From assembly GCA_016177405.1 (NCBI GenBank), contig JACOVG010000033.1, forward strand, positions 41,486 through 105,485: 64,000 nucleotides of DNA. Direction: 5' to 3'. The DNA comes from Candidatus Omnitrophota bacterium (GTDB taxonomy: Bacteria > Omnitrophota > Gorgyraeia > 1-14-0-20-64-10). Both the position numbers and the translations under genes were made by a program. Below, one piece after another: positions 1-62,528 of the stretch; within the stretch, counting starts at the first letter, position 1, and each line of letters starts with the position of its first letter. The notes below the pieces were generated by a model, which had not been told where the DNA came from, searched no databases, and saw only the letters and a list, made by a program, of their open reading frames with translations.

Positions 1-63
1 GATCTGGCGCGCGCTGCCCGCGCAGCCGTCAACCGGCGCTCGGGCTACAACGCGCCCCGCGTT

Positions 64-1164: not shown

Positions 1165-1165
1165 G

Positions 1166-2287: not shown

Positions 2288-2298
2288 TGGGATCGTTT

Positions 2299-5551: not shown

Positions 5552-5602
5552 GGAATGCCGCCACTGTAGACGTTAATATTAATCAAAATCTACTTCTAGG
5601 GT

Positions 5603-5631
5603 TTGACAATTCCGCGGGGATGTGCCATAGT
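5603..5631 (+). promoter_or_regulatory. Sigma-70-type promoter TTGACA-N17-CATAGT (GCCATAGT class) for the 5665 gene
   Basis: TTGACA at 5603-5608, a 17-bp spacer, and CATAGT at 5626-5631 preceded by G. An RBS AAGGAGGA lies 8 nt before the ATG at 5665. Confidence 0.55.
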
Positions 5632-5664
5632 CCCCTTAGAATAAAATAAAGGAGGAAACCCCCC

Positions 5665-8391: not shown

Positions 8392-8862
8392 ATGGCCTCC
8401 ACCTATCTCACCCCCGCCGGTCTCGCCAAGCTGGAAAACGAGCTGGCCGAGCTCAAGAAGCAGAAACGCCGGCTCTCCGAAGAGGTGGGCATCGCCCGGG
8501 AGCTTGGGGATTTGCGGGAAAACGCCGAGTACCACGCCGCCAAGGAGCGGCTCCAGCATCTACTGGAGAGGGTTTCCGAGATAGAGTTCAAGCTCTCCAA
8601 CGTTCATGTGATCGATTCCAGCCAGCTCGATTCCAGCATGGCCTCGGTGGGGATGAGGCTTAAGGTGAAGGAGCTTGCTTCAGGTAAAGAGGAAAGCTAC
8701 ACCCTGGTCGGCGCCGAAGAGGCCGATCCCGCCAACGGAAAGATCTCCTTTCAATCGCCGCTCGGGCGCGCCTTCCTGGGCCACAAGGTCCAGGAGGAAG
8801 TGACCGCCATCCTTCCGGCCGGCTCCCGCTCTTACCGAATCCTCGCGATCACTCCCGCCTAG
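8392..8862 (+). CDS. greA: Transcription elongation factor GreA
   Basis: 156 aa. N-terminal coiled coil LTPAGLAKLENELAELK...RENAEYHAAKE, followed by a C-terminal FKBP-like domain. Confidence 0.9.
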   Translation: MASTYLTPAGLAKLENELAELKKQKRRLSEEVGIARELGDLRENAEYHAAKERLQHLLERVSEIEFKLSNVHVIDSSQLDSSMASVGMRLKVKELASGKEESYTLVGAEEADPANGKISFQSPLGRAFLGHKVQEEVTAILPAGSRSYRILAITPA

Positions 8863-11800
8863 CCATATTTCTGGTGCTCCAGGCGCGCCAGGGCGCTGTA
8901 GGCGCAGGGCACGACGAGCAGGGTCAGCACCGTTGAAACGATCACCCCGCCGATCACGGTGACGGCCATGGGGATGCGCGCCTCGGCGCCCGGGCCCAGC
9001 GCCATGGCCGGAGGCAGGGCGGCCGCGACCGTGGAGATGGAGGTCATCAGGATCGGCCTTAACCGGATGGGACAGGCGGCCAGCAGGGCTTCGGAAACCC
9101 CCTTCCCCTGCCGGCGCATCTGGTTGGTGAAGTCCACCAGCAGAATCGAGTTCTTCTTCACAATCCCCATCAGGAGAATGAGGCCGATGTAGCTCATGAT
9201 ATTGAGCGACTGATCCGCGATCCACAGGGCGATCAGCGCCCCCGAAAGAGAGAAGGGCAGGGCCAGCAGGACCGTGAAGGGGTGGACGTAAGAATTGTAT
9301 TGGCTGCCCAAAACCATGTAGGCGATCACAATCCCCAGCACCAGGGCAAAGACCAGACTGCCGACCGATTCCCGGAAGGTTTGGCTGGACCCTCCGAAGA
9401 CGGCCCGATAGCCTTCCGGGAGGACCTCCTTGGCGATCCGCTCGGCCTCATCCAGCGCGGCCGCCTGGGACTGGCCGGGGGCCACGTTGGCGAAAAGAGA
9501 GATCGCCCGCTCCCGCTGGCGGCGCGTGATGGTCAGCGGGGTCGCCTTCCTCTCCACGGTCACCACCTCGGACAAGGGCACCCTCTCTCCACGGTTGTTC
9601 CAGACCCACAGCTTCCGGACGTCCTCCTCCCGGCTGCGTTGGCTGGGGACCAGCCGAACGCGCACGTCGTATCTCCTGGCCCCTTTCGTGTATTTGGCGA
9701 CCCGCTCTCCGCCCACGGCGGCGTTGATCGTTCGGGCGACCGCCTCCATCCCCACCCCCCGCTGGGCCGCGGCTTCCCGGTTGGGCCGGACCTGAATCTC
9801 GACGGCCGGCTCCAGGAAATCGGTGTCCACGTCCACCAGGAGGGGGCTCTGGGCCATCCGCCGCCGGATCTCCTCGGCGTGAGCCCCCAGCTTATCCCAC
9901 TGGGGGCCGCGGACGGTGAGCTCGATGGGGAAGCCGCGCTGGGCCGAGAAGCCGCTTAAGGAAAGGTCCTGAACCGACGCCCGCACGTCGGGGATCTTGT
10001 TGAGCTCCTTTCTAAAGAGGGTCATCAGATCCTTTTGCGCCAGAGGCTTTTTGTTGGGCGCGACCACTGGCCTTTCGCGCGGGGGCTTGAAGGTCACAAA
10101 GAGAACCCCGGTGTTCACCTCGCCCCCGCCGAAGCCGCCGATCGCCCCGAAGTATCGTTTTATCTCCGGGCGGCTCATGGCGAAGGCCTCTGCTTTTTTG
10201 AAGCGCTCGTCGGTGAACCCCAGGGAAGAGCCCACCGGGGTCTGGAGGCGGACCAGGAACATGCTCTGATCCTGCGGCGGGACGAACTCCCGCCTTAGCC
10301 GAGGAGCAATGAGGAGAACCGACGCGGCAAAAAAAGCCGCGGCCGCCGCCAGGACCAAGCCGCGCCGGCCCAGGGCCAGGGCCAAGACCTTCCGGTATTG
10401 CCGGGCCAGCCACCCGAAGCCCCTCTCCGCCTCTTTCTCCACGGCCGTCTGTCTTTGGCCGACTTGAAGAAACTGCGCGCAGCGCATCGGCGCCAGCGTC
10501 AAGGCCTCCAGGAGGGAGAGGGCCACCGCCACCGAGATCGTCACCCCGAACTCAAAGAAGAAGCGGCCGATCAGCCCCTGCATGAAGGCCACCGGCAGAA
10601 AGATCGCCACGATCGCCAGGGTGGCCGCCAGCGCGGCGAAGGTGATCTGCCGCGCCCCCTGCCGGGCCGCCTCCACCCGGTCCAGGCCCATCTCCTGATG
10701 CCGGACGATGTTCTCCAGCACCATGATGGCGTCGTCCACCACGATCCCGATGGCCAGGGTCAGCCCCAGGATGGTGAAGGTGTTCAGGGTGAATCCCAGA
10801 AAAAAGGTCACGATGAAGGTCCCGAGGATGGAGGTGGGGATCGCCAGCAGGATGTTCAGGGTGGCCGACCAGGAGCCCAGGAAAAGCCAGCAGACCAGCG
10901 ACGTCAGGATGGCCGACAGAAAGAGGGTGAAGACCAGCTCCCGCATCGAATCTTCGATGAACCGGGTCCGGTTGAAGTTGACTCCCATCTCGATTCCCGG
11001 GGGCAGCTCCTTCTGGACCTCGGCCAGGCGCTCCAGGACCCGGCGGGCCACCGCCACCTCATTGGCCCCTCTCTGCTTGCGGATCCCGAGGCCCACGGCG
11101 GTGCTGCCCATCACCCGGGAGATTCGCCGCCGGTCGGCCAGGCCGTCTTCGATGGCGGCCACCTCTCGGAGGGTGATCGGCTTGTGGATGGGCTGGCCCC
11201 CCCGGGCGGCGATCACGAGGCCGCCGAATTCCTCCACCGAGGCCGCCTCCCCCATCGTCCGGACGTTGAACTCCTTCTCGGCCGTTTCGATCCGGCCGGC
11301 CGGGCGCTCGGCATGCTCCCGCTCGATCGCCGCGATCACGTCCCCCACGGTCAGCTGAAAGGCCTCCAGCTTCTCGGCGTCCAGCCAAACCCTTAAGTTG
11401 CGCTCGACCCACCCGCCCAGGAAAACCTCGCCCACCCCCTCGATCGTCTGGAAGCGGTCCTTGAGGCGGTCCTGCACGTATCCCATCAGATCCCTCAAGG
11501 GGATCTCGCCGGCCACACCCATCCAGATGATCGGCTGGTCCTGCGGGTTGGACTTGGTCACGACGGGCGGATCGATGTCCTCGGGCAGACGGCGCTGGGC
11601 CTGCGCCACCTTGGTCTGAACCTCCTGGAGCGCGGCGTCGATGTCCCTGTTGAGCTCGAACTCGACGGTCACGTTGGCCTGCCCCTGCCGGGTGTTTGAG
11701 GAGACCTCCCGGATCCCCTGGATGTTCATCACGGCATCTTCCAGAACGTCGACCACGTCGGTCTCCATCACCTCGGGCGCGGCCCCCTCCCAGGCGGCCG

Positions 11801-11942
11801 ACACGTTGATGATTGGGAAGTCCACATCCGGCATCTGGGAGACGCCCATCCCCAGAAAGCCGATCGCCCCAAAGAGGATGAGAGAAAACATCAGCATCCA
11901 GGCGAAAACCGGATTCTTGATGGAGAGGTCGGACAGGGTCAT
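8859..11942 (-). CDS. RND-family efflux transporter permease (AcrB/CzcA superfamily)
   Basis: 1027 aa with 12 TM segments and two large periplasmic loops. N-terminus MTLSDLSIKNPVFAWMLMFSLILFG. The start ATG lies 3 nt after the stop of the upstream OMP gene. Confidence 0.9.
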   Translation of the reverse strand: MTLSDLSIKNPVFAWMLMFSLILFGAIGFLGMGVSQMPDVDFPIINVSAAWEGAAPEVMETDVVDVLEDAVMNIQGIREVSSNTRQGQANVTVEFELNRDIDAALQEVQTKVAQAQRRLPEDIDPPVVTKSNPQDQPIIWMGVAGEIPLRDLMGYVQDRLKDRFQTIEGVGEVFLGGWVERNLRVWLDAEKLEAFQLTVGDVIAAIEREHAERPAGRIETAEKEFNVRTMGEAASVEEFGGLVIAARGGQPIHKPITLREVAAIEDGLADRRRISRVMGSTAVGLGIRKQRGANEVAVARRVLERLAEVQKELPPGIEMGVNFNRTRFIEDSMRELVFTLFLSAILTSLVCWLFLGSWSATLNILLAIPTSILGTFIVTFFLGFTLNTFTILGLTLAIGIVVDDAIMVLENIVRHQEMGLDRVEAARQGARQITFAALAATLAIVAIFLPVAFMQGLIGRFFFEFGVTISVAVALSLLEALTLAPMRCAQFLQVGQRQTAVEKEAERGFGWLARQYRKVLALALGRRGLVLAAAAAFFAASVLLIAPRLRREFVPPQDQSMFLVRLQTPVGSSLGFTDERFKKAEAFAMSRPEIKRYFGAIGGFGGGEVNTGVLFVTFKPPRERPVVAPNKKPLAQKDLMTLFRKELNKIPDVRASVQDLSLSGFSAQRGFPIELTVRGPQWDKLGAHAEEIRRRMAQSPLLVDVDTDFLEPAVEIQVRPNREAAAQRGVGMEAVARTINAAVGGERVAKYTKGARRYDVRVRLVPSQRSREEDVRKLWVWNNRGERVPLSEVVTVERKATPLTITRRQRERAISLFANVAPGQSQAAALDEAERIAKEVLPEGYRAVFGGSSQTFRESVGSLVFALVLGIVIAYMVLGSQYNSYVHPFTVLLALPFSLSGALIALWIADQSLNIMSYIGLILLMGIVKKNSILLVDFTNQMRRQGKGVSEALLAACPIRLRPILMTSISTVAAALPPAMALGPGAEARIPMAVTVIGGVIVSTVLTLLVVPCAYSALARLEHQKYG

Positions 11943-11945
11943 GGG

Positions 11946-13253
11946 TTAGGCGGGGATTTCCCCGGTGATCGCTTTGAATCTCAAGTAACGACGCTTGGCC
12001 TCGTACTGGGCCTGGGTGAGCTGGCGCCGGGCTTCCTGAAGCTCCTGAAGGCTTTCGAGGTACCGGATCGGGCTCACGAGCCGGTATCGAAACTCCTCGC
12101 TTTGGGCCGCGTGGCTGTCCGAGACGGCCTTCCAGGCCTGAGCCAAAGCGCCGGCCTCACCCAGGGCGGACTGCACCCGAGAGTAGGCGTCCCTGATCTC
12201 GGAAAGGGCCTTGCGCTGGGTTTCGGTGAGCGTGAGCCGGGTTTGGCGCTCGCCCGAGGCCGCCTCCGCGACCGCGCCGCGGGTTTGGCCTCCCTCAAAA
12301 ATGGGAACCTCCACCTTCAGAGCGGCATCCCAGTCCACCTCCTTGGAAGCGCCAACCCTTTCCACGAAATAGTTGCCCTCCAAATTCACGGTGGGCCACC
12401 GTCCGGCCTTGGCCAGCCGAACGCTCTCGTGGGCCGCCTGGCTGGATTCCTGCGCCGCCAGCACATCCGGCCGGGAGAAGGCCTTGGCCAGGTAGGTTTC
12501 CGGCGGGTCAAGCCGAAAGGGATAAGGATCGGTTTCCTTCACCAGGGGAAGGGGTTCCACGCCGGTTAAAAATTCGAGGAGCTGGCGGGCCAACCCTTGC
12601 TGAAGAGCGGCCTGCTCCATTTCGGCATCCAACCGGTGGAGATCGGCTTGCGCCCGGTGAGCCTCGCTGGCCTTAAGCCATCCCAGCCGTTCCCGCTCTC
12701 TCACCTGGGCCAATCGCTCCAGGAGGGTTGTCCGGATCGAGGCCAGGGCCTCAAGCTCCTCCTGTTGCCTAAGAAGCTCCACAAAGGCCTCCGCCACATC
12801 GACAAAAAGGAGCTGCTCGGCCCTTCGTTTCTCCTGAAGACGCTGCCGGCCCTCCGCCTTTGTGCCGGCCATGGCGGCGAACTCCTTGAAACCGGAAAAG
12901 AGGGGCTGGCTCATGACAAACTTTCTCTCCGGAACCTCTTTGAGGGTGAAGGCGGAGCCGCCGCTGCCGTCCTGCCGCTTGTCGGAGGAGGAGAAGGTGA
13001 CCCGCGGGAGAATGCCGCTTATGGCCTGGGTGAAGCGGGCCTCGGTCTCGGTGATCAGCTCCTTTTGGATGGCCACCGTCTCGCTTCGCGCGAGGGCCAG
13101 CCGGTAGCATTCTTCCAGGGTCAGCGGCCCTGAAGGGGAAGCCTCTTGGGCCAAGGCCGGAAGGGTAAGCCCGAACAGGAAAACGGTCAAGAGGATCTTG
13201 CGGAGGAGGGCGAGATAGGCGGCTTGCTCCCTCGCGCTAAGATTCTTCAGCAT
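11946..13253 (-). CDS. TolC-family outer membrane efflux protein, counted from internal Met116 of the 550-aa ORF
   Basis: Signal-peptide-like stretch ILLTVFLFGLTLPALAQEA is followed by two OEP repeats. It is in frame with the upstream MarR domain and no stop codon separates them. Confidence 0.7.
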   Translation of the reverse strand: MLKNLSAREQAAYLALLRKILLTVFLFGLTLPALAQEASPSGPLTLEECYRLALARSETVAIQKELITETEARFTQAISGILPRVTFSSSDKRQDGSGGSAFTLKEVPERKFVMSQPLFSGFKEFAAMAGTKAEGRQRLQEKRRAEQLLFVDVAEAFVELLRQQEELEALASIRTTLLERLAQVRERERLGWLKASEAHRAQADLHRLDAEMEQAALQQGLARQLLEFLTGVEPLPLVKETDPYPFRLDPPETYLAKAFSRPDVLAAQESSQAAHESVRLAKAGRWPTVNLEGNYFVERVGASKEVDWDAALKVEVPIFEGGQTRGAVAEAASGERQTRLTLTETQRKALSEIRDAYSRVQSALGEAGALAQAWKAVSDSHAAQSEEFRYRLVSPIRYLESLQELQEARRQLTQAQYEAKRRYLRFKAITGEIPA

Positions 13254-13598
13254 CGCCCCCATGGTTTTTCGCCGCATCTTGCCAAACTGCATGAAGAGCA
13301 GGCGGCCCTTGGGGGTGATCGAAACCCAGACGACGCGGCGGTCCGCCTCGTCGCGGCCTCTGGCCGCCAGGCCCCCTCGCACCATCCGGTCCACCAATCC
13401 GGTGGCCGCGCTCATCTGAATTCCAAGCAGAAGGGAAAGCTCGCGCATCTTCTGGCGCCGGTGGCGAAGCAGGGCGTCCAGGATCACCACCTGGGGCAGG
13501 GTGAGGGTGCCGTAGCCCTTCAAGCCCCGCTCCCGGCGGACGATCCGCCGGAAGAGGGCGAGGACCAGCTCGAACAGTTCTTGCGGAGCGCTGGGCAT
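13191..13598 (-). CDS. MarR-family transcriptional regulator domain (N-terminal ~136 aa of the same 550-aa ORF)
   Basis: Winged-helix pattern LTLPQVVILDALL...LGIQMSAATGLVDRMVRGGLAAR...RRVVWVSITPKGR. Dimerisation helix LSAREQAAYLALLRKIL. There is no stop before the OMP signal peptide. Confidence 0.6.
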
Positions 13599-13618
13599 GG
13601 TTACCTATTACTTCGTGC

Positions 13619-13635
13619 ACATGAAATGTTCATAT
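13619..13635. promoter_or_regulatory. Inverted repeat ATGAA-N3-TTCAT in the marR/MFS divergent intergenic region (candidate MarR operator)
   Basis: cacATGAAatgTTCATat sits between the divergent starts at 13598 (-) and 13677 (+). A TATATATA stretch follows. Confidence 0.35.
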
Positions 13636-13676
13636 ATATAAAATAACACACTCCCCCCAAGCCCGTCAACCCTGGA

Positions 13677-14915
13677 ATGTGCTACACTACCCCCGACATG
13701 CCCCGCGACCGACTCCTCATTTACGCCGCCGGCTTCTTGAGGGCCTTGGGGGTGGGCCTGGTGGGGGTTTTGTTTGCCTTGTACCTCGCCGCCAGGGGGT
13801 TCCACACCGGGCAGATCGGACTGCTGGTGGCCGCGGGGATAGCCGGCAACGCCCTGGCCACCTTCGGGGTGAGCTTTTTCGCCGACCGCCTGGGGCGCCG
13901 GAGGACCCTCCTCGCGCTTTCCGCTTTGATCGTGGTCGGTGGAGCTGGCCTGGTTCTCTTGCCCCGCTTTCTTCCCCTGGCCTTCGTGTCGTTTCTGGGG
14001 ATGGTCAACGCCATGGGGCGCGAGCGGGGCGCCCTGTTCACCCTGGAGCAGGCGATCATCCCGGCGACGGCCGACGACCGGCACCGGACCCAGGCCCTGG
14101 CCTGGTACAACGTGGTGTTGGACGCGGGTCAGGCCCTGGGCTCCCTCTTGGGCGGCGTGCCCTTTCTTTTGCGGCGAAGCCTCGGATGGGAGGATCTGGC
14201 TTCCTACCAGGCGGCCTTCGCCGGATACGCTGTCTTGGGGCTGGCGGGCTTCTTCCTCTATATGGGCTTAAGCCGGAGGGTGGAGGTCGCGGGCCCCGGC
14301 TCCCTGCCTGCCGGTCTCAAGGCCTGGCGGGGCATCTCTGGCCCCTCCCGAAGGATCATCACCCGGATTTCCCTCCTCTTTGGGATGGACTCGATCGGCG
14401 GAGGATTCCTTCCCTCGTCCCTCATCGCCTACTGGTTCTTCAAGCGGTTTGGGATCGGGGAGGAGTGGCTGGCCCCTCTTTTCTTTGTGGCCCATGTGGC
14501 CAACGCCTTCTCGTATCTGGCGGCGGCCTGGATCTCCCGCCGGATCGGCCTGGTTCGGACGATGGTCTTCACCCATCTGCCGTCCAACGTGTGTCTTCTC
14601 GCGATTCCCTTCGCCCCAAGCCTTCCCGCGGCGGCGGCTCTGTATCTTCTGCGGGAGTGTCTGGTGGAGATGGATGTCCCCACCCGGCAGTCTTACGTGA
14701 TGGCGGTGGTGGCGCCGGCCGAGCGGACGGTGGCGGCCGGGGTGACGAATCTCACCCGCCTGATCGCCTGGACGATTGCCCCGGGGATAGCGGGTTTTGC
14801 CATGAAGGGGCTGGCCATGAGCTTTCCCCTCTTGGCCGGCGGAGGCATCAAGATCGTTTACGACCTCACCCTCTACCGTTCCTTCCGCCACGTCAGGCCC
14901 CCCGAGGAGCGGTAA
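13677..14915 (+). CDS. MFS transporter
   Basis: 412 aa with 12 predicted TM segments and the MFS loop motif ADRLGRRRTL. Divergent from the marR ORF. Confidence 0.8.
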   Translation: MCYTTPDMPRDRLLIYAAGFLRALGVGLVGVLFALYLAARGFHTGQIGLLVAAGIAGNALATFGVSFFADRLGRRRTLLALSALIVVGGAGLVLLPRFLPLAFVSFLGMVNAMGRERGALFTLEQAIIPATADDRHRTQALAWYNVVLDAGQALGSLLGGVPFLLRRSLGWEDLASYQAAFAGYAVLGLAGFFLYMGLSRRVEVAGPGSLPAGLKAWRGISGPSRRIITRISLLFGMDSIGGGFLPSSLIAYWFFKRFGIGEEWLAPLFFVAHVANAFSYLAAAWISRRIGLVRTMVFTHLPSNVCLLAIPFAPSLPAAAALYLLRECLVEMDVPTRQSYVMAVVAPAERTVAAGVTNLTRLIAWTIAPGIAGFAMKGLAMSFPLLAGGGIKIVYDLTLYRSFRHVRPPEER

Positions 14916-15275
14916 ATGAGAAGGGTCCTGGTGGACGGCAACAACGTGCTGGCAGCGCTGGGGCTTGCTCGAGGAGGCACCGCCGGCGCCGAGGCGTTTC
15001 TCCAGAAGCTGGAGATGGCCGCCGCCTCCAAGGATTGGGAGGCGACCGTGGTCTTTGACGGGCCCGAGCGTTTCCTCTCCAGGCCGACCGGCCCCCTCGT
15101 CGTCAGGTACGCGGCCAAGGGCCAAACTGCCGACAGCGTAATTGAGCGGGCCGTTTACGAAACAGCCGACCGGCTCTCCACCGTCGTGGTGACCCAGGAC
15201 CAGCCCCAAGCCGATCTGGTCCGGGGGCTGGGCGCCGTCGTCTGGACCCCCCGCCGCCTGCTGGAAGAGATGTGA
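14916..15275 (+). CDS. NYN/PIN-like domain protein (YacP/DUF88-like)
   Basis: 119 aa with the VLVDGNNV motif typical of NYN ribonuclease-like domains. It starts 1 nt after the MFS stop. Confidence 0.6.
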   Translation: MRRVLVDGNNVLAALGLARGGTAGAEAFLQKLEMAAASKDWEATVVFDGPERFLSRPTGPLVVRYAAKGQTADSVIERAVYETADRLSTVVVTQDQPQADLVRGLGAVVWTPRRLLEEM

Positions 15276-15285
15276 TATATTGCAG

Positions 15286-15309
15286 GGTGCCAGGATTTAT
15301 CCTGGCACC
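15286..15309. repeat. 24-bp palindromic hairpin element GGTGCCAGGATTTATCCTGGCACC (copy A)
   Basis: Perfect 9-bp inverted repeat with a 6-nt AT loop, lying between the NYN stop (15275) and the ATG at 15334. Copy B at 62501-62524 is the near-identical reverse complement. Confidence 0.7.
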
Positions 15310-15333
15310 CTATCCATAGAGGAGGGCAACCGG

Positions 15334-17667
15334 ATGATACGCCGAGGGCTGGCCTCACTTATCCTCGTCACCTATACTGCCTCCTTCATCCTTTCGCCGG
15401 CTCCCGGCTTTGCTCAAGACCCGACCGATTCTCCGCAAGAAACCCCCGCTGCCGGAGCTCGCCTCTTTACCGTTAAAGAGCAAGCCCAAGCATTGGGCTC
15501 TGATCCGCAGAGGATCTTCCGGTTCGTCTCCGATCAGATCCGTTACGAATCCTACGCCGGCGTCTTAAGGGGCTCCGAGGGGACCCTGCTGGCCCAGGCG
15601 GGCAACAGCTTCGACAAATCACTGCTTCTGGCCGCCCTGTTGAAAGAAGCAGGAGTGGAATTCCGTTTTGTTCGAGGAATCCTGGAGCCAGGGGCGATGG
15701 ATCGAACGATCGCCTCGATGCTCACGCCACAACCCCTGGAATCTTCCCTGCCCGGTGAGTCCCCCGGGACGGATTTTTCCAAGCTGACCCATGAACAGCA
15801 GGAGTTTCTGGAAGAAGGATACGACCGCTACGCCGCCATGCTTGAGCGGATTCAGGAAAGGACCGATGAGAACTTCAAGTGGCTGGCCGACCTGCTGGAG
15901 GCCAACGGGATCTCCGCCCCACAGGAGATTCCGGATCAGGTGAGGCCCTTAAGGAAGGAACTCGAAGAGCATCTCTGGCTCGAGGCCAAGCTTGGCGAGG
16001 AATGGGTGGCGATGGATCCCTCTGTCCCGGCCGCCCCCATCGGCCAAGCCTTTGGCAAGCCGCAGGATTACCCGGCCGAGATCCCCAAGGATCTGCTTCA
16101 TTGGATCAACCTTTCGATCTGGATCCGCTCGGGGGCTGCCGCGGGTCAGCAGGATAAGCACATCGTCTCACACGACGTCCCCGCCTTCTTCCTCTTTGGC
16201 AAGTCTGTCACGATCGCCAACACCCCAGAGGCCGGTTTGGCCGGCTTGGGAAGCATGATGGGAGGGATGCTCGAGGGGAAGACTGGAACCACCTTTTATC
16301 CCGCCATTCAGATTGGAACCCAGACCTATGAGGGCGAAGCAGTCACCTGGGCCCCTCCCCGGCCGGCTTCCACCGCCTCCAAGCCCAAGCGCGGTGGAGG
16401 GCTCTTTGGGGGGCTCGATGTTTTGGACGAGGCCGTCCGTCCGGAAGAGGCCGCCAAAGACAACGCCAAGCAATCCCTGCCGATCACGGAGTGGGTGGAA
16501 GCCACCCTTCGATCTCCCGGAGGCGGCGTGGAGAAGCTGAAGTGGAACCTCTTCCATTGGGACGCCAGCTCCGGCGGCAATCCCGATCCCACCGCGGCCT
16601 CATGGGAGCTGTCGGTGATCTCAGGCAAGGTTCTTTATCCGGTCCTGGGCCGCCTCTTAAGACGGGCCCTCTTTTCCGCCAGCCCCGACTCCGCCTGGAG
16701 GATGAGCTCCTATCTCAACTACAACCATGCCTTCCTCCGGGATGAGATGCTCGATTACGTTTATGAGCCCAGCGATGCCATCCGCTACGTCGATTCTCCC
16801 CATCTGGCGGTCACCGAGATCGCCCTCCAGGAGAACCAAGCCCTCTCCTTGAAGATGAACCTGGTAAGACCGGCCAGAAGGGTTCTCCTGCCAGCGGATG
16901 CTCCCCCAGAGCGCTGGCAGCGGCTCTTCTTTGAACAGCTCTTCATGGGGGTTCTCGATGCCCAGATTGAGCGGGCGGTGGTGGAGGAGACTGTTTCTCA
17001 AGAGGAGGGTGCCTTGGCCTGGGTCGACAGCGTTCCCTCCCTCTTTGAGAAGGCCAAGGAGCAGGGAATCCCCCTCTGGGTTTTGACGCAGGCCTCCTCC
17101 GATAAGGTGAAGCAGCTTTCAACCTCGGAAGCGGTGAAGACCCGCCTGAGAGAGCAGCTTGCGGCCGGCAACGCCCTGGTGATTCCCAGCCGCCCGGTCG
17201 CCATCGGCTCCCAATCTCGACTGGGCTGGTGGCGGGTGGTGCTCGCGACCGGCCAGACCCAAGACGAGACCCCCGAGGGCCAGCATCAGGCCTCGACGGA
17301 GAAGGCCGTGCTGGAGACTCACGCGACCACCACCGCCACCCGGGCGATGCAGGCGTTCCAGAAGGTTCTCTGCAGCAAGATCGCGACGATCGCCTTTGTG
17401 ATCCTCTCCGCGGTAGCTACGGAAGCCACCATGGGGAGTATGGGCTCCGTCCTCCAGGATCTCATGGAGCAGGTCGGAAACATCCCAGCCTGCCCCGTGA
17501 AGAAGCCCCCCCTGCGGCCTAAGCCGCCTGCGCCTCCGATCAGAAGACCCAGGCAAAATTGGCCCAGGCCTCAAAACCAGAGGCAGCCGCCCCGCCCCGA
17601 CATCCCGGACAGGCGCCGCCGGCCCGAGGCGTATTACCCCTCCTCCCGCTCCCCCAGGGGCCACTAG
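15334..17667 (+). CDS. Secreted transglutaminase-like domain protein (Cys-to-Ser variant) with Pro/Arg-rich C-terminal tail
   Basis: I chose the ATG at 15334 (MIRRGLASLILVTYTASFILSPAPGFA signal peptide, GAGGAGG RBS) because the ORF-track start at 15280 merely translates the palindrome. The TGase core aligns as G-N-S-F-D-K-S against the canonical G-x-C-R-D-F-A. The His (EHLWLEA) and Asp (AMDPS) are conserved. The C-terminal ~55 aa are Pro/Arg-rich. Confidence 0.65.
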   Translation: MIRRGLASLILVTYTASFILSPAPGFAQDPTDSPQETPAAGARLFTVKEQAQALGSDPQRIFRFVSDQIRYESYAGVLRGSEGTLLAQAGNSFDKSLLLAALLKEAGVEFRFVRGILEPGAMDRTIASMLTPQPLESSLPGESPGTDFSKLTHEQQEFLEEGYDRYAAMLERIQERTDENFKWLADLLEANGISAPQEIPDQVRPLRKELEEHLWLEAKLGEEWVAMDPSVPAAPIGQAFGKPQDYPAEIPKDLLHWINLSIWIRSGAAAGQQDKHIVSHDVPAFFLFGKSVTIANTPEAGLAGLGSMMGGMLEGKTGTTFYPAIQIGTQTYEGEAVTWAPPRPASTASKPKRGGGLFGGLDVLDEAVRPEEAAKDNAKQSLPITEWVEATLRSPGGGVEKLKWNLFHWDASSGGNPDPTAASWELSVISGKVLYPVLGRLLRRALFSASPDSAWRMSSYLNYNHAFLRDEMLDYVYEPSDAIRYVDSPHLAVTEIALQENQALSLKMNLVRPARRVLLPADAPPERWQRLFFEQLFMGVLDAQIERAVVEETVSQEEGALAWVDSVPSLFEKAKEQGIPLWVLTQASSDKVKQLSTSEAVKTRLREQLAAGNALVIPSRPVAIGSQSRLGWWRVVLATGQTQDETPEGQHQASTEKAVLETHATTTATRAMQAFQKVLCSKIATIAFVILSAVATEATMGSMGSVLQDLMEQVGNIPACPVKKPPLRPKPPAPPIRRPRQNWPRPQNQRQPPRPDIPDRRRRPEAYYPSSRSPRGH

Positions 17668-17672
17668 CGGAG

Positions 17673-20600
17673 ATGGACGAAATGCCGCTCCTTCGTCATT
17701 GCGACCGCGAGCGTCAGCGAAGCGGGAAGCGGTCTTGTCTTAAAATCGGGATTGCTTCGTCGCTGGCGCTCCTGGCAATGACGTATCACTGGGCCTTCGC
17801 GGAATCCACCGTCGAGCCGGTGAACCTCGCCTCTTTCGCCAACGGCGGCAGGATAGAAAGCGCCAGCTCCGACGGCTACGGCAACGTGCCGGCCTACCTG
17901 CTGGACGGAAATCCGGAAACCCAATGGGAAACGGCCTACGGCGATAAAACCAGAGAGGTGGTCCTCTCCTTCTTCGACGGCCGCGAGGCCCTTCTGGATG
18001 CGGCGGTTCTTCATCCCGGCGCCCAGGCCGGCTCTCAGGCCATCAAGGAGTTTGAGCTGCTCCTTTCGGATCAACCCACCGGAGACGATTTCCAATCGGC
18101 CGGGGTCTTTGCCTTAACCCAGGAGGCGGCCGATCAACGGTTTGATCTTGCCGGGAAGAGGGCTCGGCGCCTGAAACTCAAGGTCCTTTCCACCTATGGA
18201 GGCGATCGTTGCGCATTGACGGAGCTCAAGATCCTGGAGGCCGGGGCGCCGGAGGCCTCCCTCTTGAAGGATGCCTTCGCCCAGCCCGTCGCGCAAGAGG
18301 CCCTTTCCACAAGGACCAATCTGGTTTACGTGAGAAATGGCAGCCGGGTGGTTTCCGCCTCCTCCCAGGCCTACGATTACCTCCCCCAGCGGCTGCTGGA
18401 TGGCCACGCGACCGACGAGCGGCGCTGGGAGGGTTACTACAAGGATCTTCAGCCGGAGCTGACCTTTGCTTTTTTTGAAGACCGGCTGGCCGTGGTGGAC
18501 GGCGTTGTGATCCATCCCGGCGAGAAGTATCCGGATTACTGGGTTCGGGAGCTGGAGCTTTGGGCCTCTACGACCGAGCCGGATTCCAGCTTTGAAAGAA
18601 TCGGCCGCTTTATCTTAAAGAAGGAATCAAGCCATCAGCTCATCCCGTTTCCGCCCAGGCCCGTCAAGTATCTCAAGGTCAAGTGCCTGACCCGCTACGG
18701 CCGCCTCAACAATGCCGAGGGCTGCCGGATTGCGGAGCTGATGGTCCTGGAGCATCCCGAGCCGGGCAAGCCCTCCATCCTGGAGGGGGCCTTTGCCCAG
18801 CTGGTGTCGGCCGAGACGCTGGCCCTCGCCAGGGATCTTTTAAGCCCCTCTTTGGGCGGCCGGATCGTGTCGGCCTCCTCCTCCGGCTACAGCAGCAGCC
18901 CGCCCGCGCACCTGGTAGACGGCAAGGTGGACGAGTACAACTATTGGGAGGGGGCCTACAAGGATCCCCAGCCGGAGATTGTCGTCTCCTTTTTTGACGA
19001 CCGGGCCGCCTGGGTCGACGGCGTCGTACTCCACACCGGCTCAAAATATTCAGACAACTGGCCCAGGGACGTGGAGCTTTGGGCCTCCCTGGAAAAGTCG
19101 GACTCCGGCTTCAAGAAGATCGGCCGATTCCTTCTTAAAGAAGAGGCCGGCTACCATCGGCTTTTCTTCCCTCCAACGCAGGCCAAGTACTTGAAGGTCA
19201 AGTTCCTGGGCCGCTTTGGCCGGCTCAAGGACGCCGAGCAGTGCCGCGCGGGGGAGCTGATGGTTCTCGAGTCGAAGGAAGAGGGAAACGTCTCCATCCT
19301 GGAGGATGTTCTCACCCAGCCGCTTTCCGCCCACTCGATCGCTGGAGGGGTCAACGTGGCCTTTCGAACCCTGGGCGGCAAGGTGGAGGACGCCAGCTCC
19401 TCGTACGACGACAAGTTCAAGCCGGACAACCTCATCGACGGCATGACGGGTTCGGAGAACTCTTGGGCGCCGGCCAAGGATCAAGCGCCTCCCCACGAGA
19501 TCGTCTTCTCGTTTCTTCGCCAGAAGGCGGCCTGGATCGACAAGGTGGTTCTGGACCCGCGGCACCAGGTGAGGAACACCGCGACGGTCAAGGATTTTGA
19601 GATCTGGGTTTCCCAGGAGGCCAGCGGAGAGTCGTTCACCAAGGCAGGGCGCTTCTTGGCGCCCAACCAGATGATCGAGCAGGCGGCCCTCCTGCCCAAG
19701 CCGGTTTTGGCGAGGAGGGTCAAGCTCAAGATCCTCTCGGCGCATGACGAGAAGCTTCTTCCGGCCCTGGCGGAGGTGATGATCCTGGAGGCCCCCTCGG
19801 CCGGCCCCTCGGTCCTCTCCGATCTTAAGCTGAACTTGGCCGACCGCTCGCTGGGCTTCTCGCTCGTCCGCTTTACCTCCCAGGGCTCAAGCGGCCAAGA
19901 AAGGTGGATGGCCTCCCAACTGTTTAACCCGGCTCGCGAGCCGGAGGGATGGGCCTCCTCGGACAACAAGTTCCCGCAGGATCTGGTCTTTGGCTTCGGG
20001 CTGGGCCAGCGTGTTTTGCTCCGGAGGGTCATCCTGGAGGCCCCTCCCGTCCTTGAGACAAGACCCAAGCAGTTCAGCCTTCGGACCTCTCTGGAGTCTC
20101 CGGTGCGGGGTTTGAAGACGATAGGGGAGGAGGTTTACGACTTCGATCCCTCCGCCGCCGAGCAAGTGGTTGAGTTTGATCCTCCCATGGAGGCCAGGTA
20201 TCTCATGCTTCGGATCCTCTCCAACCAGGGAGGCAGGGTGACCGGCTTGAAGGCGATCCGGATGATCGAGGCCCAAGCCCCCGGTTATCTCTCGCTGGCG
20301 ACCCGGCTTGGACAAGTGGGCGGCAGCCGCCCCGGGCAGGAGGAGGAAGAGGCGGTCTCCTCTGTCGAGGAGGGAGCTCGCCCAGAGAAGGAGCCCAACG
20401 ACAGTCCTGCCCAGGCCGATCCGGTAGCGCTGGAGGAGAAGGTGGCCGGCAAGATCGATCCCCCGCAGGAGGTAGATTACTATCGGCTCGATCTCGCCCG
20501 TGCCGACCGAAACATCTTAAACCTTGAGCTGACCGGCAGGCCTTACCTGCGCACCTCGCTTGCGTTAAGCAAAGAGGCAGATCCCTCTTGGACGAAGCAA

Positions 20601-22112
20601 TTTACACCCGAGAAGGCCTCCGGTCAGCAGGCGCAGATCTCTTGGAAGTTCGAGCCGGCCTCGTACCTTCTCAAGGTCTCGGAGCCCAAGAGCTCCCTCG
20701 TCCTCATCTACGACACGAGCGGCAGCATGCAGGGCAGCCAGCAGGATCTTGAAGCTGCCGTGGCCAGTTACGCCAAGGCGATCCAAAAGGGAGAGGAGAT
20801 GGCCGTCGTCCGCTTCTCGAACAAATCCCAGAGGCTTTGCGATTTTACGGATGAGCCGGCTGTCCTCGTGAAGGCCCTGGAGGGGCAGTTTACTCCCAAC
20901 GGAGGAACCTCCCTCTTCGACGCCCTTCGAGACGGCATCGCCCTGCTGGAAGGGCGGCTGGGCAACCGAGCGATTATTCTGATGACCGATGGGATGGATT
21001 CGACGAGCTCGACCAAGTACACGGAGATCTGGTCCGTCCTGGAGGGCTTAAGCAGGAGCAACATCCGACTCTACACGATCGGGATGGGCCAGGACCTCAA
21101 GCAGTACACGCCGGCGATCGGGGCCACGGGTGGCGAGATGCTGGCCCACTTTGCCGCCGCCACCGGCGGACGATTCTTTTACGCCCCCACCTCCAAGGAG
21201 CTCGTGGGGCTGTACGAGGAGATTTCGCGGGAGCTCCGGATGATCACCCGCTACACCCTCACCACCTCCCTAGGAGGCGGCGAGGGCGGATTGCGTCTGA
21301 TCGAGGCCGGCGAAAGGATCCAGGGGGTGGGGGCCCCCACGATCGTGGAGTTCATCCTGGATGCCTCCGGCAGCATGAGCTCTTCCCGGGGAATGAAGGG
21401 CGGAAAAAAGAAGATCACAGTGGCCAAGGAAGTCCTTTCCGAGCTGATCCGAAGCATGCCGGAGGATTACCGCTTGGCCCTGCGGGTCTACGGGCACCGC
21501 TTCAAAGGGGACAAGAAGGATTCCGAGCTTTTGTTTTCCCCGACCGAGGGCAACCGGGACCCCATGCTCAAGAAGATCGCCGCGATCCAGCCGGTGGGCT
21601 TAACCCCCATCGCCTACTCGCTGACCCAGGTGATCAGCGACCTGGCCAACCTGCCGGGAGAGAAACTCGTCATCTTAGTCAGCGACGGCGAGGAGACCGG
21701 CGGGGGAGATCCGGTGAAGGCGGCCCAACAATTGCACTTCATGGGGGTGGGGGTCAAGGTGAACGTTGTCGGCTTTGACATCGCCGAGCAGAAGGTGCAG
21801 GAGCAGATGCGCCAGATCGCCGCCATGGGCGGCGGGCAGTACTATGGGGCCAAGAACTCTGACGAGCTGATTGGTTCCCTGCGCCAGGCCCTGCGCGCCA
21901 GCTTCAAGATCTTCGATGACAGCGGAGAAGAGATGGCGACGGGGCAAATCGGCGAGGGAGAGGTCAAACTCCCGGCAGGGCGCTACAAGGTGGTGGTCCG
22001 CCCGGAGGATCCCATCACGGTAGAGGGGGTGGAGGTCCGCCACAAGGCGGTGACGGAGGTCAAGATCAAGAAGGAAGGGGACCGGATCCAAACCGAATGG
22101 CGCATCCCATGA
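17673..22112 (+). CDS. Giant secreted multidomain protein: five discoidin (F5/8 type C)-like repeats, a PPC domain and two vWA domains
   Basis: Start chosen at MDEMPLL..KIGIASSLALLAMTYHWAFA (signal peptide), just after the upstream stop. Five ~160-aa repeats are each marked by YLLDG..W and ELMVLE. Then comes a pre-peptidase C-terminal domain (KEPNDSPAQA...VDYYRLDL). Then two vWA domains with MIDAS motifs (DTSGSM, DASGSM). Confidence 0.7.
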   Translation: MDEMPLLRHCDRERQRSGKRSCLKIGIASSLALLAMTYHWAFAESTVEPVNLASFANGGRIESASSDGYGNVPAYLLDGNPETQWETAYGDKTREVVLSFFDGREALLDAAVLHPGAQAGSQAIKEFELLLSDQPTGDDFQSAGVFALTQEAADQRFDLAGKRARRLKLKVLSTYGGDRCALTELKILEAGAPEASLLKDAFAQPVAQEALSTRTNLVYVRNGSRVVSASSQAYDYLPQRLLDGHATDERRWEGYYKDLQPELTFAFFEDRLAVVDGVVIHPGEKYPDYWVRELELWASTTEPDSSFERIGRFILKKESSHQLIPFPPRPVKYLKVKCLTRYGRLNNAEGCRIAELMVLEHPEPGKPSILEGAFAQLVSAETLALARDLLSPSLGGRIVSASSSGYSSSPPAHLVDGKVDEYNYWEGAYKDPQPEIVVSFFDDRAAWVDGVVLHTGSKYSDNWPRDVELWASLEKSDSGFKKIGRFLLKEEAGYHRLFFPPTQAKYLKVKFLGRFGRLKDAEQCRAGELMVLESKEEGNVSILEDVLTQPLSAHSIAGGVNVAFRTLGGKVEDASSSYDDKFKPDNLIDGMTGSENSWAPAKDQAPPHEIVFSFLRQKAAWIDKVVLDPRHQVRNTATVKDFEIWVSQEASGESFTKAGRFLAPNQMIEQAALLPKPVLARRVKLKILSAHDEKLLPALAEVMILEAPSAGPSVLSDLKLNLADRSLGFSLVRFTSQGSSGQERWMASQLFNPAREPEGWASSDNKFPQDLVFGFGLGQRVLLRRVILEAPPVLETRPKQFSLRTSLESPVRGLKTIGEEVYDFDPSAAEQVVEFDPPMEARYLMLRILSNQGGRVTGLKAIRMIEAQAPGYLSLATRLGQVGGSRPGQEEEEAVSSVEEGARPEKEPNDSPAQADPVALEEKVAGKIDPPQEVDYYRLDLARADRNILNLELTGRPYLRTSLALSKEADPSWTKQFTPEKASGQQAQISWKFEPASYLLKVSEPKSSLVLIYDTSGSMQGSQQDLEAAVASYAKAIQKGEEMAVVRFSNKSQRLCDFTDEPAVLVKALEGQFTPNGGTSLFDALRDGIALLEGRLGNRAIILMTDGMDSTSSTKYTEIWSVLEGLSRSNIRLYTIGMGQDLKQYTPAIGATGGEMLAHFAAATGGRFFYAPTSKELVGLYEEISRELRMITRYTLTTSLGGGEGGLRLIEAGERIQGVGAPTIVEFILDASGSMSSSRGMKGGKKKITVAKEVLSELIRSMPEDYRLALRVYGHRFKGDKKDSELLFSPTEGNRDPMLKKIAAIQPVGLTPIAYSLTQVISDLANLPGEKLVILVSDGEETGGGDPVKAAQQLHFMGVGVKVNVVGFDIAEQKVQEQMRQIAAMGGGQYYGAKNSDELIGSLRQALRASFKIFDDSGEEMATGQIGEGEVKLPAGRYKVVVRPEDPITVEGVEVRHKAVTEVKIKKEGDRIQTEWRIP

Positions 22113-23197
22113 CCCCGCCAACCGCCAAGCTCTTTTGGATCCTGGCGTTGGCCGCGCTCACGGCCGGGTGCCAACTGGAGATTGGCTTTCAGGCCGACAC
22201 GAAGGTTCTCCCCGACGGGTCGGTCACCCGAACCACCCGGTACGAGGCCTTTTCCCTGTCGGATAAAACCGAGCTGGAGAAGCGGTACGAGCTTCCTCCA
22301 TCAGGCCAATGGGAAGAGATCGCCATCCCCAAGCCCCCGGTGGCCGGCGAACCGAAGGCGCCCGAGACCCACCACCTCTACTCCGTGACCCGGCGTTACG
22401 CCCCAGGCGAGCCGATGGTCCCCGATCACGGCAGAAAGGACGAGCAAGGCCGGCTCGGCGCGCTCAACCGGATCAAGCTCTCCATCGACGAGACTTTCTT
22501 CACCCGCACCTTTGACTACGAGGAGCGCTTCCGGGACGGAGGCAGCCGCGAGGAGGCCGCCCAGGCCCTCCAGGAGATCTTGGAGGCCTGGATCGCCCGT
22601 TTCTCAAGACTCCTTGAGGGGAAGCTTAAGAAACAGCTTGCCGCGGGCCAAATCCAGGAGGTTTTTCTGGCCAAGCTCAAGCCCCTCCTCCTGCGGCTTC
22701 AGGATCAGATCCGCTTTCAAGGGGGCGCGGCGCTCCGGAACACCTCTTTCTTTGACGAGCTGGCTGGAGAGCTGGAGAAGGAGGGGATGGTGAATTTCTT
22801 CTTGACGAGCTTCCCGCCGCCCGCGCCCCAGAAGGCCCCTCTCTGGAAAGCCAGCGCGGAGGAGGCCTACGAGGAGGCGGAGGATTTCCTGGAAGAAGAG
22901 ATGTCCTCCCAGTCCCAGGGGGCTTTCTTCGGCGCCTATGGCCTGCCGATCCTGCAGCCCGATTACACCTTTCACCTTTCCCTGCGGCTTCCCGGGAAGA
23001 TCCTGTACGCCAATTCGACCCGAAGGCAGGGCAAGGCGCTCGTCTGGGAGTTTGACCGCTTTCACTTTTTGTGGGACGATCACATCCTGCACGCCCGCTC
23101 CCGGGTGGTTCGGACCGGCCGGGTTCTCTTCTTAGGAGGAATGCTTGCCTTGGTTCTCGCGCTGGCGATGGTCTATTCCCGCAGATGGACCTCTTAG
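22097..23197 (+). CDS. Lipoprotein, hypothetical, with C-terminal TM anchor
   Basis: Lipobox LTAGC after a signal peptide, and a C-terminal hydrophobic segment VLFLGGMLALVLALAMVY. It overlaps the giant gene's stop by 16 nt, so translational coupling is likely. Confidence 0.55.
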   Translation: MAHPMTPPTAKLFWILALAALTAGCQLEIGFQADTKVLPDGSVTRTTRYEAFSLSDKTELEKRYELPPSGQWEEIAIPKPPVAGEPKAPETHHLYSVTRRYAPGEPMVPDHGRKDEQGRLGALNRIKLSIDETFFTRTFDYEERFRDGGSREEAAQALQEILEAWIARFSRLLEGKLKKQLAAGQIQEVFLAKLKPLLLRLQDQIRFQGGAALRNTSFFDELAGELEKEGMVNFFLTSFPPPAPQKAPLWKASAEEAYEEAEDFLEEEMSSQSQGAFFGAYGLPILQPDYTFHLSLRLPGKILYANSTRRQGKALVWEFDRFHFLWDDHILHARSRVVRTGRVLFLGGMLALVLALAMVYSRRWTS

Positions 23198-23207
23198 AGC
23201 GCCGAGG

Positions 23208-23837
23208 GTGAGCAAGGCCCTGCGGCAAATCGAGGAACGCTTGAGCGGTCTCGCGCCCGGGACCCTCCGGCATGAGACGCTCCAAGCGGCCAAACAGTTC
23301 AAGAGCTCCTGGATCGAATTGGGCCGGGCCCTCTGGACGGTTTCGAATCAGAAGGCCTTCCGGGAATGGGGATTCCTCACCTTCGAGGCCTACTGCGCCA
23401 AGGAGGTCGGAATCCGCGCCGCCACCGCCAAGAAACTCCTCCACTCCTACTACTTCCTGGAGAAGGAAGAACCGACCCTCCTGAAGGAGCTTGAAGGAGA
23501 AGCGCCCTCCAAGCTGCCCAGCCCCGAGGCGGTGAATGTCCTGCGCCTCATTCGCAAGCGCAAGGAGATCTCTCCCGAACGATACCAGCGTTTTCGCTCC
23601 TACGCCCTGGAGGAGGGCAAGGAGGCGCCGGTTCTGCGCCGGGAGCTCAAATCGCTGATGGAGGAAACCCATCCGGATCCGGCCGCCCTCCGGGCCAGCC
23701 GGCGGCAGGCGGCCCTGCGCCGGATGATCGGCACCCTGAAGTCCCTCCAGGCGGAATCGGCCGCGTCGGATTTTCTTCCCAAAAGTCTTACGACCCAAAT
23801 CGGTTCCCTCATCAAAAAACTTGAGGAGGCACTCTAA
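23208..23837 (+). CDS. Hypothetical protein
   Basis: Charged, helical ~209-aa ORF. GTG start chosen just after the upstream stop. No recognised motif. Confidence 0.4.
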   Translation: MSKALRQIEERLSGLAPGTLRHETLQAAKQFKSSWIELGRALWTVSNQKAFREWGFLTFEAYCAKEVGIRAATAKKLLHSYYFLEKEEPTLLKELEGEAPSKLPSPEAVNVLRLIRKRKEISPERYQRFRSYALEEGKEAPVLRRELKSLMEETHPDPAALRASRRQAALRRMIGTLKSLQAESAASDFLPKSLTTQIGSLIKKLEEAL

Positions 23838-24250
23838 TGATCGAGAGAATCCAATCCACCCGGGCGGGCGTGGCGATTGCCCTCTTAAGGATGGTCCTGG
23901 GGGTGATCTTCATCAGGGAAGGCTCCGGAAAGCTCTTCGGTTGGTTTGGCGGCGGAGGTTTTGAGGCGGCCTGCCAGTATTTCACGGAGCTGGGAATCCC
24001 CTTGCCGGTCTTGAACACGATCTTGGTCTCCGGCACGGAGTTCTTTGGCGGATTGGCGCTTCTGGCCGGTTTCTTGACCCGCCTGGCCGTGATCCCCCTT
24101 TCCATCACCATGGGAGTGGCGATTGTGACCGCCCACTTGGGCGGGGGATGGGGGTACCCGACCCTCATCATCGCGGTGTGCGCGGTCCTGTTTCAGAATG
24201 GCTCGGGCCCCTTCTCGCTTGATCACGCCTTAGGCGCTCCGGAAAAGTGA
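23837..24250 (+). CDS. DoxX-family membrane protein
   Basis: 137 aa with 4 TM segments and a DoxX-like pattern (LLRMVLGVIFIREGSGKLFGWFGG...). Confidence 0.7.
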   Translation: MIERIQSTRAGVAIALLRMVLGVIFIREGSGKLFGWFGGGGFEAACQYFTELGIPLPVLNTILVSGTEFFGGLALLAGFLTRLAVIPLSITMGVAIVTAHLGGGWGYPTLIIAVCAVLFQNGSGPFSLDHALGAPEK

Positions 24251-62487: not shown

Positions 62488-62500
62488 TCTTGTGCAAAAA

Positions 62501-62528
62501 GGTGCCGGGATAAATCCTGGCACCTTTT
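62501..62528 (+). terminator. 24-bp palindromic hairpin (copy B) plus T-tract: gltB terminator and/or leader operator of the next gene
   Basis: GGTGCCGGGATAAATCCTGGCACC followed by TTTT. It is the reverse complement of copy A at 15286 with one mismatch. Confidence 0.6.

Follow-up and report, generated by a model that had tools for sequence, protein, structure and literature searches.

A recurrent gene pair for a transglutaminase-like protein without the catalytic cysteine and a tandem-VWA protein, in an Omnitrophica genome and in other bacterial phyla

Do genes that lie tightly packed on one strand belong to one functional system? The question is raised by four genes, here called A to D, in a Candidatus Omnitrophica metagenome-assembled genome (MAG). 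By the window we mean the whole stretch of 64,000 nucleotides (nt) analysed here, positions 41,486 to 105,485 of contig JACOVG010000033.1. An earlier note on this DNA had described the four genes as one operon of secreted proteins, perhaps a surface adhesin or matrix-organising system. All genes of interest are on the + strand, between 13.6 and 25.5 kb of the window, and proteins A and C are 100% identical to HYS41_07175 and HYS41_07185, respectively.

15334-17667, + strand: gene A, 777 amino acids (aa)
17682-22112 (alternative start 17673, 1479 aa), + strand: gene B, 1476 aa
22109-23197, + strand: gene C, 362 aa
23208-23837, + strand: gene D, 209 aa, GTG start

We found that A and B are a conserved gene pair, uncharacterised, in several bacterial phyla, and that C and D are neighbours and not conserved parts of the A-B module. 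Gene A encodes a protein with a transglutaminase-like (TGL) domain, and gene B a large protein that ends in two VWA domains (VWA1 and VWA2) and a beta-sandwich. Related loci are numbered with L. Those of the A family were found by searching with gene A only, and linkage was scored by tblastn for VWA2 plus the sandwich. These loci came from Chloroflexota/Chloroflexia, Limnocylindrales, Vicinamibacterales and other Acidobacteriota, Planctomycetota, and unclassified metagenome contigs. In 11 of 15 independent loci (the window, L001/2, L004, L005, L006, L008, L009, L011, L016, L018 and L020), a B-like gene with VWA2 and sandwich lies no more than 6 kb from the A homologue, with tblastn E values from 1e-18 to 1e-50. 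In the window, L001/2, L009, L016 and L020 the two genes are immediate neighbours on one strand, and in L009 the B-like gene overlaps the stop codon of A. As a background control we used 80 loci (704 kb) retrieved via gene D, none of which had a B-like match.

When all window proteins were compared with the A-family loci by tblastn, only A and B were recovered. An all-against-all comparison of open reading frames (ORFs) in 11 A-family loci yielded no third conserved gene family, and no homologue of C or D was found in the 14 A-family loci of other genomes. Only A and B recur together in other phyla; C, D and the DoxX gene that follows them do not. A reciprocal search with B led to a Gammaproteobacteria MAG in which an A-family gene lies 30 nt upstream of the gene for a 1757-aa B-like protein, this pair being flanked by unrelated genes on the opposite strand. 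The linkage extends over at least four phyla, with Chloroflexota, Acidobacteriota and Gammaproteobacteria among the groups concerned, at protein identities of 25-30%. We found the A-B pair nowhere described in our literature searches.

The B-like partners differ freely in their N-terminal modules, while VWA2 and the sandwich are the part that all of them share. Many B-like partners also carry a PPC-like module, VWA1 and discoidin modules. In Chloroflexia the N-terminal part consists of PPC arrays, Ig-like modules and two discoidins; in Acidobacteriota the partner has one discoidin and a middle domain of ~370 aa; and the L001 partner has five other beta-repeats and a prenyltransferase-like toroid, the latter recognised by eye from WxxxQxxDGSW-type repeats, without Pfam support. 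Further arrangements were also seen. In L011 (Chloroflexia MAG contig_16480), two A-like genes (3835-6735 and ~9845-12092) occur with two B-like genes (3-4469 on the − strand, and 11455-17128 with frameshifts), so that the pair appears duplicated. Acidobacterial A-family loci (L003 11920-16666, L008 11904-13661 and L020 12107-14365) have an extra DUF4352 protein beside A. On L015 (5602-14392), a 1721-aa B-like protein with discoidin and VWA domains is encoded beside a Ser/Thr protein kinase and a TPR protein, an alternative context for this type of protein.

Protein B of the window has a predicted Sec-type signal peptide (aa 1-40, ending at AFA and followed by ES), and the rest of its length can be divided as follows.

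17802-20318, + strand: five tandem discoidin / F5-8 type C (galactose-binding-like) repeats, PF00754
20388-20681, + strand: PPC-like beta module with EPNDSP motif, aa ~903-1000
20691-21236, + strand: VWA domain 1, aa 1004-1185; metal-ion-dependent adhesion site (MIDAS) D1011, S1013, S1015, T1076, D1103
21339-21896, + strand: VWA domain 2, aa ~1220-1405; MIDAS D1227, S1229, S1231, T1308, D1335
21900-22109, + strand: C-terminal beta-sandwich of ~70 aa, with a weak prealbumin/SpaA-like Pfam score

The five discoidin repeats claimed in the earlier note were confirmed and their boundaries mapped (aa 41-208, 209-381, 382-554, 555-716 and 717-879; 162-173 aa each, 19-51% pairwise identity). Each repeat alone matches PF00754 (E values 4e-9, 1.5e-4, 3.8e-7, 6.3e-12 and 3.5e-6), three of the five exceed the 28.2-bit cutoff on their own, and the whole protein scores 139.6 bits. 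The two VWA domains likewise have, as had been stated, the VWA fold and an intact DxSxS...T...D metal site. For the suggested PPC domain the support is indirect: the segment has the motif EPND...G.I....D.Y, is modelled as all-beta, and aligns by position, just before VWA1, with segments of Chloroflexia L005_B and of L009_B that score 29.5 bits (cutoff 25.9) and 20.1 bits, respectively, against PPC (PF04151), but in protein B itself it gave no Pfam match even at E ≤ 1 and no PDB sequence match. VWA2 and the C-terminal beta-sandwich are conserved together in B-like proteins of other phyla. The earlier note had called the combination of vWA, PPC and discoidin domains uncommon; the joining of vWA and discoidin domains in one protein is indeed uncommon, but not unique, the architecture being shared by proteins P0185-P0187 and the proteins of L008 and L020.

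Protein A has a predicted signal peptide (~aa 1-27) and a predicted C-terminal transmembrane (TM) helix (aa 676-701), followed by a basic Pro/Arg-rich tail. Because of the signal peptide, the single C-terminal helix and the basic tail, the bulk of the protein is predicted to lie outside the cytoplasm. It matches Pfam PF01841 (Transglut_core) with 32.1 bits (cutoff 23), a partial match covering profile positions 16-80, and the domain at ~aa 45-235 has the TGL / papain-like fold without the Cys. An AlphaFold model built with 32 sequences was confident over residues 45-655 (pLDDT 75, pTM 0.75). The TGL fold is closest to those of the endoisopeptidase PeiW and the adhesin-releasing protease LapG; a Foldseek search of the whole model against PDB returned no match at E ≤ 1e-3, and a PDB sequence search with protein A gave nothing useful. 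Beyond the TGL domain lies a conserved mixed alpha/beta region of ~420 aa, for which there was no PDB match or solved relative.

15607-15609, + strand: codon of Ser92, at the position of the TGL catalytic Cys
15970-16017, + strand: His213-Asp228 segment with Trp215 and Trp224; His and Asp of the TGL triad are kept

The helix G90-N-S-F-D-K-S aligns ungapped to the TGL consensus, which we take to be GvCrdfA, and Ser92 falls at the position of the nucleophile. His213 and Asp228 come after an insertion of ~100 residues. Compared with an active TGL enzyme, protein A thus retains the His and the Asp and has Ser92 in place of the catalytic Cys.

To see how general this is, we built a profile from A and 17 homologues and ran it on 1.84 billion cluster representatives (50%-identity clusters); 8,934 proteins had E ≤ 1e-3, and 3,219 had E ≤ 1e-30. 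The best 150 of these matches have lengths of 660-1162 aa, and their alignments cover most of the profile. In the source databases, family members are labelled 'transglutaminase-like putative cysteine protease', 'transglutaminase domain/family protein' or 'hypothetical protein', and NCBIfam offers no model of the family. Residues were counted in 178 aligned members. Position 92 is Ser in 126, Ala in 43, Asp in 4, Gly in 3, Pro in 1 and Thr in 1, and Cys in none of the 178. The Cys-to-Ser change described earlier for the TGL core of A therefore stands for this protein, whereas for the family it has to be put as Ser or Ala, never Cys. Asn91, Asp94 and Trp224 are invariant (178/178), as is Trp215 within the His213-Asp228 segment; Tyr74, Gly76, Leu78, Arg79 and Gly80 are kept in at least 175 of the 178, His213 in 174 and Asp228 in 173, and among the 43 members with Ala92, 41 retain both His and Asp. 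Judged by these counts, the putative TGL cleft is the most conserved part of A-family proteins. Because position 92 is Ser or Ala and never Cys, a Ser-His-Asp hydrolase seems unlikely for the family, and since this position varies while the cleft is conserved, a Ser nucleophile cannot be essential. In the member beside the gammaproteobacterial B-like protein, Tyr and His stand at the positions of His213 and Asp228.

Terminal hydrophobic segments (N-terminal, C-terminal or both) are present in 152 of the 178 members. An N-terminal extension of >150 aa occurs in 29, and in the members aligned or scanned it consists of a zinc ribbon followed by hydrophobic, TM-like segments; no fusion to VWA or discoidin domains was seen among the eight long members scanned. 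The A family is, as far as can be read from its sequences, a large, unnamed, phylum-spanning class of exported TGL-fold proteins without a thiol, of which the literature searched holds no description.

How do C and D relate to the pair? The genes on either side help to answer this.

13677-14915, + strand: MFS transporter
14916-15275, + strand: NYN_YacP gene (NYN)
23837-24250, + strand: DoxX, Pfam 70.5 bits
24247-25509, + strand: thiolase

Contig L014, from a close relative, aligns to 14917-15277 of the window (NYN, 88.6% nt identity) and then, ~20 nt later, to 22128-23030 (gene C, 86.8% nt identity). Because L014 joins NYN directly to C, with exactly A and B missing, A and B form a separable two-gene unit of 6.85 kb. 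The indel is flanked by no direct or inverted repeats and no target-site duplication; shared 8-mers only were found. The contigs closest to gene D have the order MFS-NYN-D-(DoxX)-thiolase with 40 nt to 3.5 kb between NYN and D, and A, B and C are absent from them, from which we place A-B(-C) in a variable slot and D in the backbone. Between the NYN_YacP gene and D (L022, L026, L028, L031 and L035), the slot ranges from 40 nt in L035 to 3.5 kb in L026. In L026 (6500-10000) the slot holds four ORFs, by eye LemA-like, a DUF2207-like membrane protein, LOG-like and PIN-like.

The family of gene D is widespread and uncharacterised: at least 300 relatives with 41-65% identity occur in metagenomes, and neither Pfam nor NCBIfam nor PDB gave a match to D. 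Its product, in which neither a signal peptide nor a TM segment is predicted, should be cytoplasmic. Export signals were thus found in A, B and C and not in D. Gene C encodes a lipoprotein with a C-terminal anchor, in agreement with the earlier note: its N-terminus, MTPPTAKLFWILALAALTAGC, includes the lipobox LTAGC, and a TM segment is predicted at aa 333-358. It has four detectable relatives only. The closest, on L014, shares 83% aa identity and has the lipobox AAGC. A distant homologue of C lies on L012 (8087-11050) / L013, downstream of genes for an OmpA protein, a small VWA protein, an 89-aa ORF and a Sod_Fe_C protein; it is the only one on a long contig, and its distance of ~1 kb from the small VWA gene may reflect a loose C-VWA link.

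The tight packing of the four genes is real, yet the same packing extends beyond them: all junctions from MFS to thiolase are overlaps or gaps of ≤14 nt, with the sole exception of 58 nt before gene A. Because equal packing runs on to MFS, NYN and thiolase, spacing alone does not delimit a four-gene unit. Gene A starts at ATG 15334, with GGAGG 8 nt before it. Gene B starts at ATG 17673, leaving a 5-nt gap to A, or at ATG 17682, the latter with better spacing to the ribosome-binding site. The start of gene C, ATG 22109, is the annotated one and forms an ATGA overlap with the stop codon of B. Gene D begins at GTG 23208, 10 nt past the stop codon of C; TTG 23145 is an unlikely start, because homologues match from residue 2 of the 209-aa form. 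DoxX, correctly said to follow the four genes, begins at 23837 in a TAATG overlap with D. A promoter scan gave a single sigma-70-like site on the + strand, upstream of the MFS gene, and a scan of the intergenic gaps found no terminator-like site within them.

The G+C fraction of A-B is 0.62, against 0.66-0.68 for MFS, NYN and thiolase. This does not single out A-B as foreign, the values of C, D and DoxX being just as low. PADLOC had no match for A-D, and a known defence system was rejected on that ground. A PHROGs search gave insignificant matches only, NCBIfam had no match for A, C or D, and no paralogue of A or B was found elsewhere in the window.

A structured element marks the left edge of the A-B unit.

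15284-15311, + strand: perfect 12-bp inverted repeat, AGGGTGCCAGGA-TTTA-TCCTGGCACCCT, in the 58 nt that separate the NYN stop from the A start

This hairpin folds as RNA with -28.4 kcal/mol (z -3.5) and has no T tract, and the NYN-C junction of L014 has no such hairpin. It may be a transcript boundary or a regulatory hairpin of the A-B unit. At 62499-62526, immediately behind a gltB-like ORF (57899-62422), there is an almost identical terminator-like stem, which is flanked by A- and T-runs like a bidirectional terminator. Both hairpins are GC-rich, with the stem GGTGCC(A/G)GGA and a 4-nt loop, and the two may represent a genome-specific terminator or an element like the repetitive extragenic palindromes (REP).

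Further upstream, on the − strand (11946-13598), a single ORF of 550 aa combines a MarR-type helix-turn-helix (aa 31-89) with a TolC-like outer-membrane efflux protein (aa ~150-545), and a signal-peptide-like stretch lies between the two parts. The ORF is directly upstream of an AcrB-like RND pump gene (8859-11942) and could be a true fusion or reflect an internal start or a lost stop codon.

One of the closest known systems is the MoxR-vWA(DUF58)-TGL (YebA/TgpA) three-gene operon, in which a vWA gene also adjoins a TGL gene, as B does 5-14 nt after A. That operon requires the ATPase MoxR, whereas no AAA+ match was found among the window neighbours (13.7-29.9 kb and the upstream efflux genes) or in the related loci. 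Its vWA protein is a small DUF58 protein, unlike B, which is large, carries a Sec signal and combines two VWA domains with a putative glycan-binding array; its TGL protein is anchored by an N-terminal multi-TM region, whereas A has a C-terminal helix and lacks the Cys. The Lap system differs in other ways. LapG is a small soluble Cys-His-Asp protease, whereas A is a 777-aa protein with a predicted membrane anchor and no such Cys, and the system further requires the c-di-GMP receptor LapD, type 1 secretion and an RTX adhesin with an N-terminal retention module, which are not seen here; Pfam scans of the window neighbours gave MFS, NYN, DoxX, thiolase, VanZ and others, and B had no RTX match. 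The Bat proteins (BatA-D), to be compared together with the TIGR03436 acidobacterial VWFA proteins, are small, N-terminally anchored, single-VWA proteins accompanied by MoxR, DUF58 and TPR genes, a context that is absent here. Inactive or Ser-type TGL proteins (Rad4/XPC, Cyk3, menin, CCDC135/DRC7 and protein 4.2) are eukaryotic and intracellular, and most lack the whole triad, whereas the A family keeps His and Asp as well as the invariant Asn and Asp that flank the lost Cys. Because the coupling of TGL with vWA is all that is common with these known systems, A-B is best described as an exported, ATPase-free TGL-vWA pair with a rebuilt active site.

We give an even chance to the following reading: A and B make up a self-contained, extracytoplasmic two-gene TGL-VWA module without MoxR, in which B is a multivalent binder and A its membrane-anchored, non-thiol partner. 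The module would occupy the slot between the NYN_YacP gene and the backbone gene D of the Omnitrophica genome. B would be exported by its Sec signal, and its five-discoidin array would provide multivalent binding to a carbohydrate or envelope ligand, while the two MIDAS sites in its constant C-terminal part (PPC-like module, VWA1, VWA2 and sandwich), both metal-dependent, would bind acidic protein ligands. A would likewise be exported, and its C-terminal helix would keep it in the cytoplasmic membrane; the cleft of A (Tyr74-x-Gly-x-Leu-Arg-Gly, Asn91, Asp94, His213 and Asp228) may bind a peptide or a metal instead of performing cysteine chemistry, and A may serve as a dedicated membrane partner (anchor, receptor or regulator) of the constant VWA part of B. 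The pair would then be an extracytoplasmic, ATPase-free counterpart of the MoxR-vWA-TGL association. TGL domains that have lost activity are seen as binders of peptides, and the TGL proteins of MoxR-vWA-YebA operons have vWA proteins as their conserved partners (PMC3495828); LapG binds calcium next to its triad (PMC4359373).

Several observations weigh against this reading. B-like genes on L015 and L017 have no A-family neighbour (the L017 contig is 10.8 kb long), no B-like gene was found at the A-family loci L007 and L019, and the L003 partner ends in OmpA and not in VWA; this peptidoglycan-binding end hints at a periplasmic or cell-wall setting. A TGL domain with no catalytic role at all would not usually keep His and Asp almost invariant, so that catalysis of some kind could occur. 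No route across the outer membrane is evident for B, and a physical A-B interaction, the ligand, and the localisation in the periplasm or at the surface are what we infer. A bolder form of the proposal is possible but doubtful, namely that the A family has a rebuilt active site (Asn-x-x-Asp plus His/Asp) that acts as a metal-dependent or His/Asp-based catalytic or sensing site and is obligate with tandem-VWA partners, as a new ATPase-independent TGL-VWA envelope system for, e.g., tethering, releasing or activating modular glycan-binding proteins.

Alternatively, A may be an active LapG-like periplasmic hydrolase with a Ser92-His213-Asp228 triad that processes B and so controls attachment, for example by a cut in the PPC-like linker that frees the discoidin array. 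PPC domains are commonly removed after secretion. The closeness of the TGL fold to PeiW and LapG, the Ser majority at position 92 and the ~97% conservation of His and Asp fit such a hydrolase. Ser-type TGL domains have been proposed as possible serine peptidases (PMC3495828), and LapA, the giant adhesin that LapG cleaves as its substrate, also has a vWFA domain (PDB 9no5). However, 43 of the 178 members have Ala at position 92 and a further 9 have Asp, Gly, Pro or Thr there, the Ala members keep His and Asp, the gammaproteobacterial paired member has Tyr and His at the two triad positions, and Pfam scans of B and the window neighbours detected no LapD-like receptor, type 1 secretion genes or RTX repeats. 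We regard this hydrolase as unlikely. A further view is that A and B are envelope proteins of independent function that have simply been inherited together, and that their adjacency reflects shared regulation or a shared mobile cassette. The pair does come in several orders and orientations (A before B, B before A, convergent, and in L005 with the genes 6 kb apart), some B-like proteins occur where there is no A, and the eight longest family members include no A-family/VWA fusion. Simple co-inheritance is nevertheless improbable in our estimate, because the linkage persists over at least four phyla at 25-30% protein identity while the N-terminal modules of B are swapped and VWA2 and the sandwich stay constant, and such persistence is the usual signature of functional coupling.

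The original proposal of one four-gene operon for a surface adhesin or matrix-organising system can appeal to the co-directional genes with overlaps or gaps of ≤14 nt and no terminator-like site between them, to the export signals in three of the four proteins, and to the single distant C homologue ~1 kb from a small VWA gene. Against it stand gene D, which lacks an export signal and is kept next to NYN and thiolase where A, B and C are absent, the close relative in which C directly follows NYN without A and B, the 14 A-family loci of other genomes without C or D, and the equally tight spacing that reaches MFS, NYN, DoxX and thiolase. The proposal is contradicted for D and unsupported for C. 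Only A and B recur together, and we consider the four-gene system very unlikely. What survives of the adhesin idea is a plausible binding or adhesion role at the cell envelope for B.

For the annotation of this Omnitrophica genome, the results mean that tight co-directional packing does not imply a functional operon. The A family deserves a name, as it comprises more than 3,000 clusters at 50% identity that Pfam and NCBIfam models describe merely as transglutaminase-like or hypothetical. The A-B pair is conserved and abundant, and nothing in it overturns established knowledge. The gene coupling of TGL and vWA is widespread in prokaryotes and has been known so far only in a form that faces the cytoplasm and depends on MoxR. 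A version that is exported and has no ATPase suggests that the conserved core of these systems is the contact between TGL and vWA itself, for which the ectodomain of A and the VWA2-sandwich part of B would be a tractable pair for binding and structural tests.

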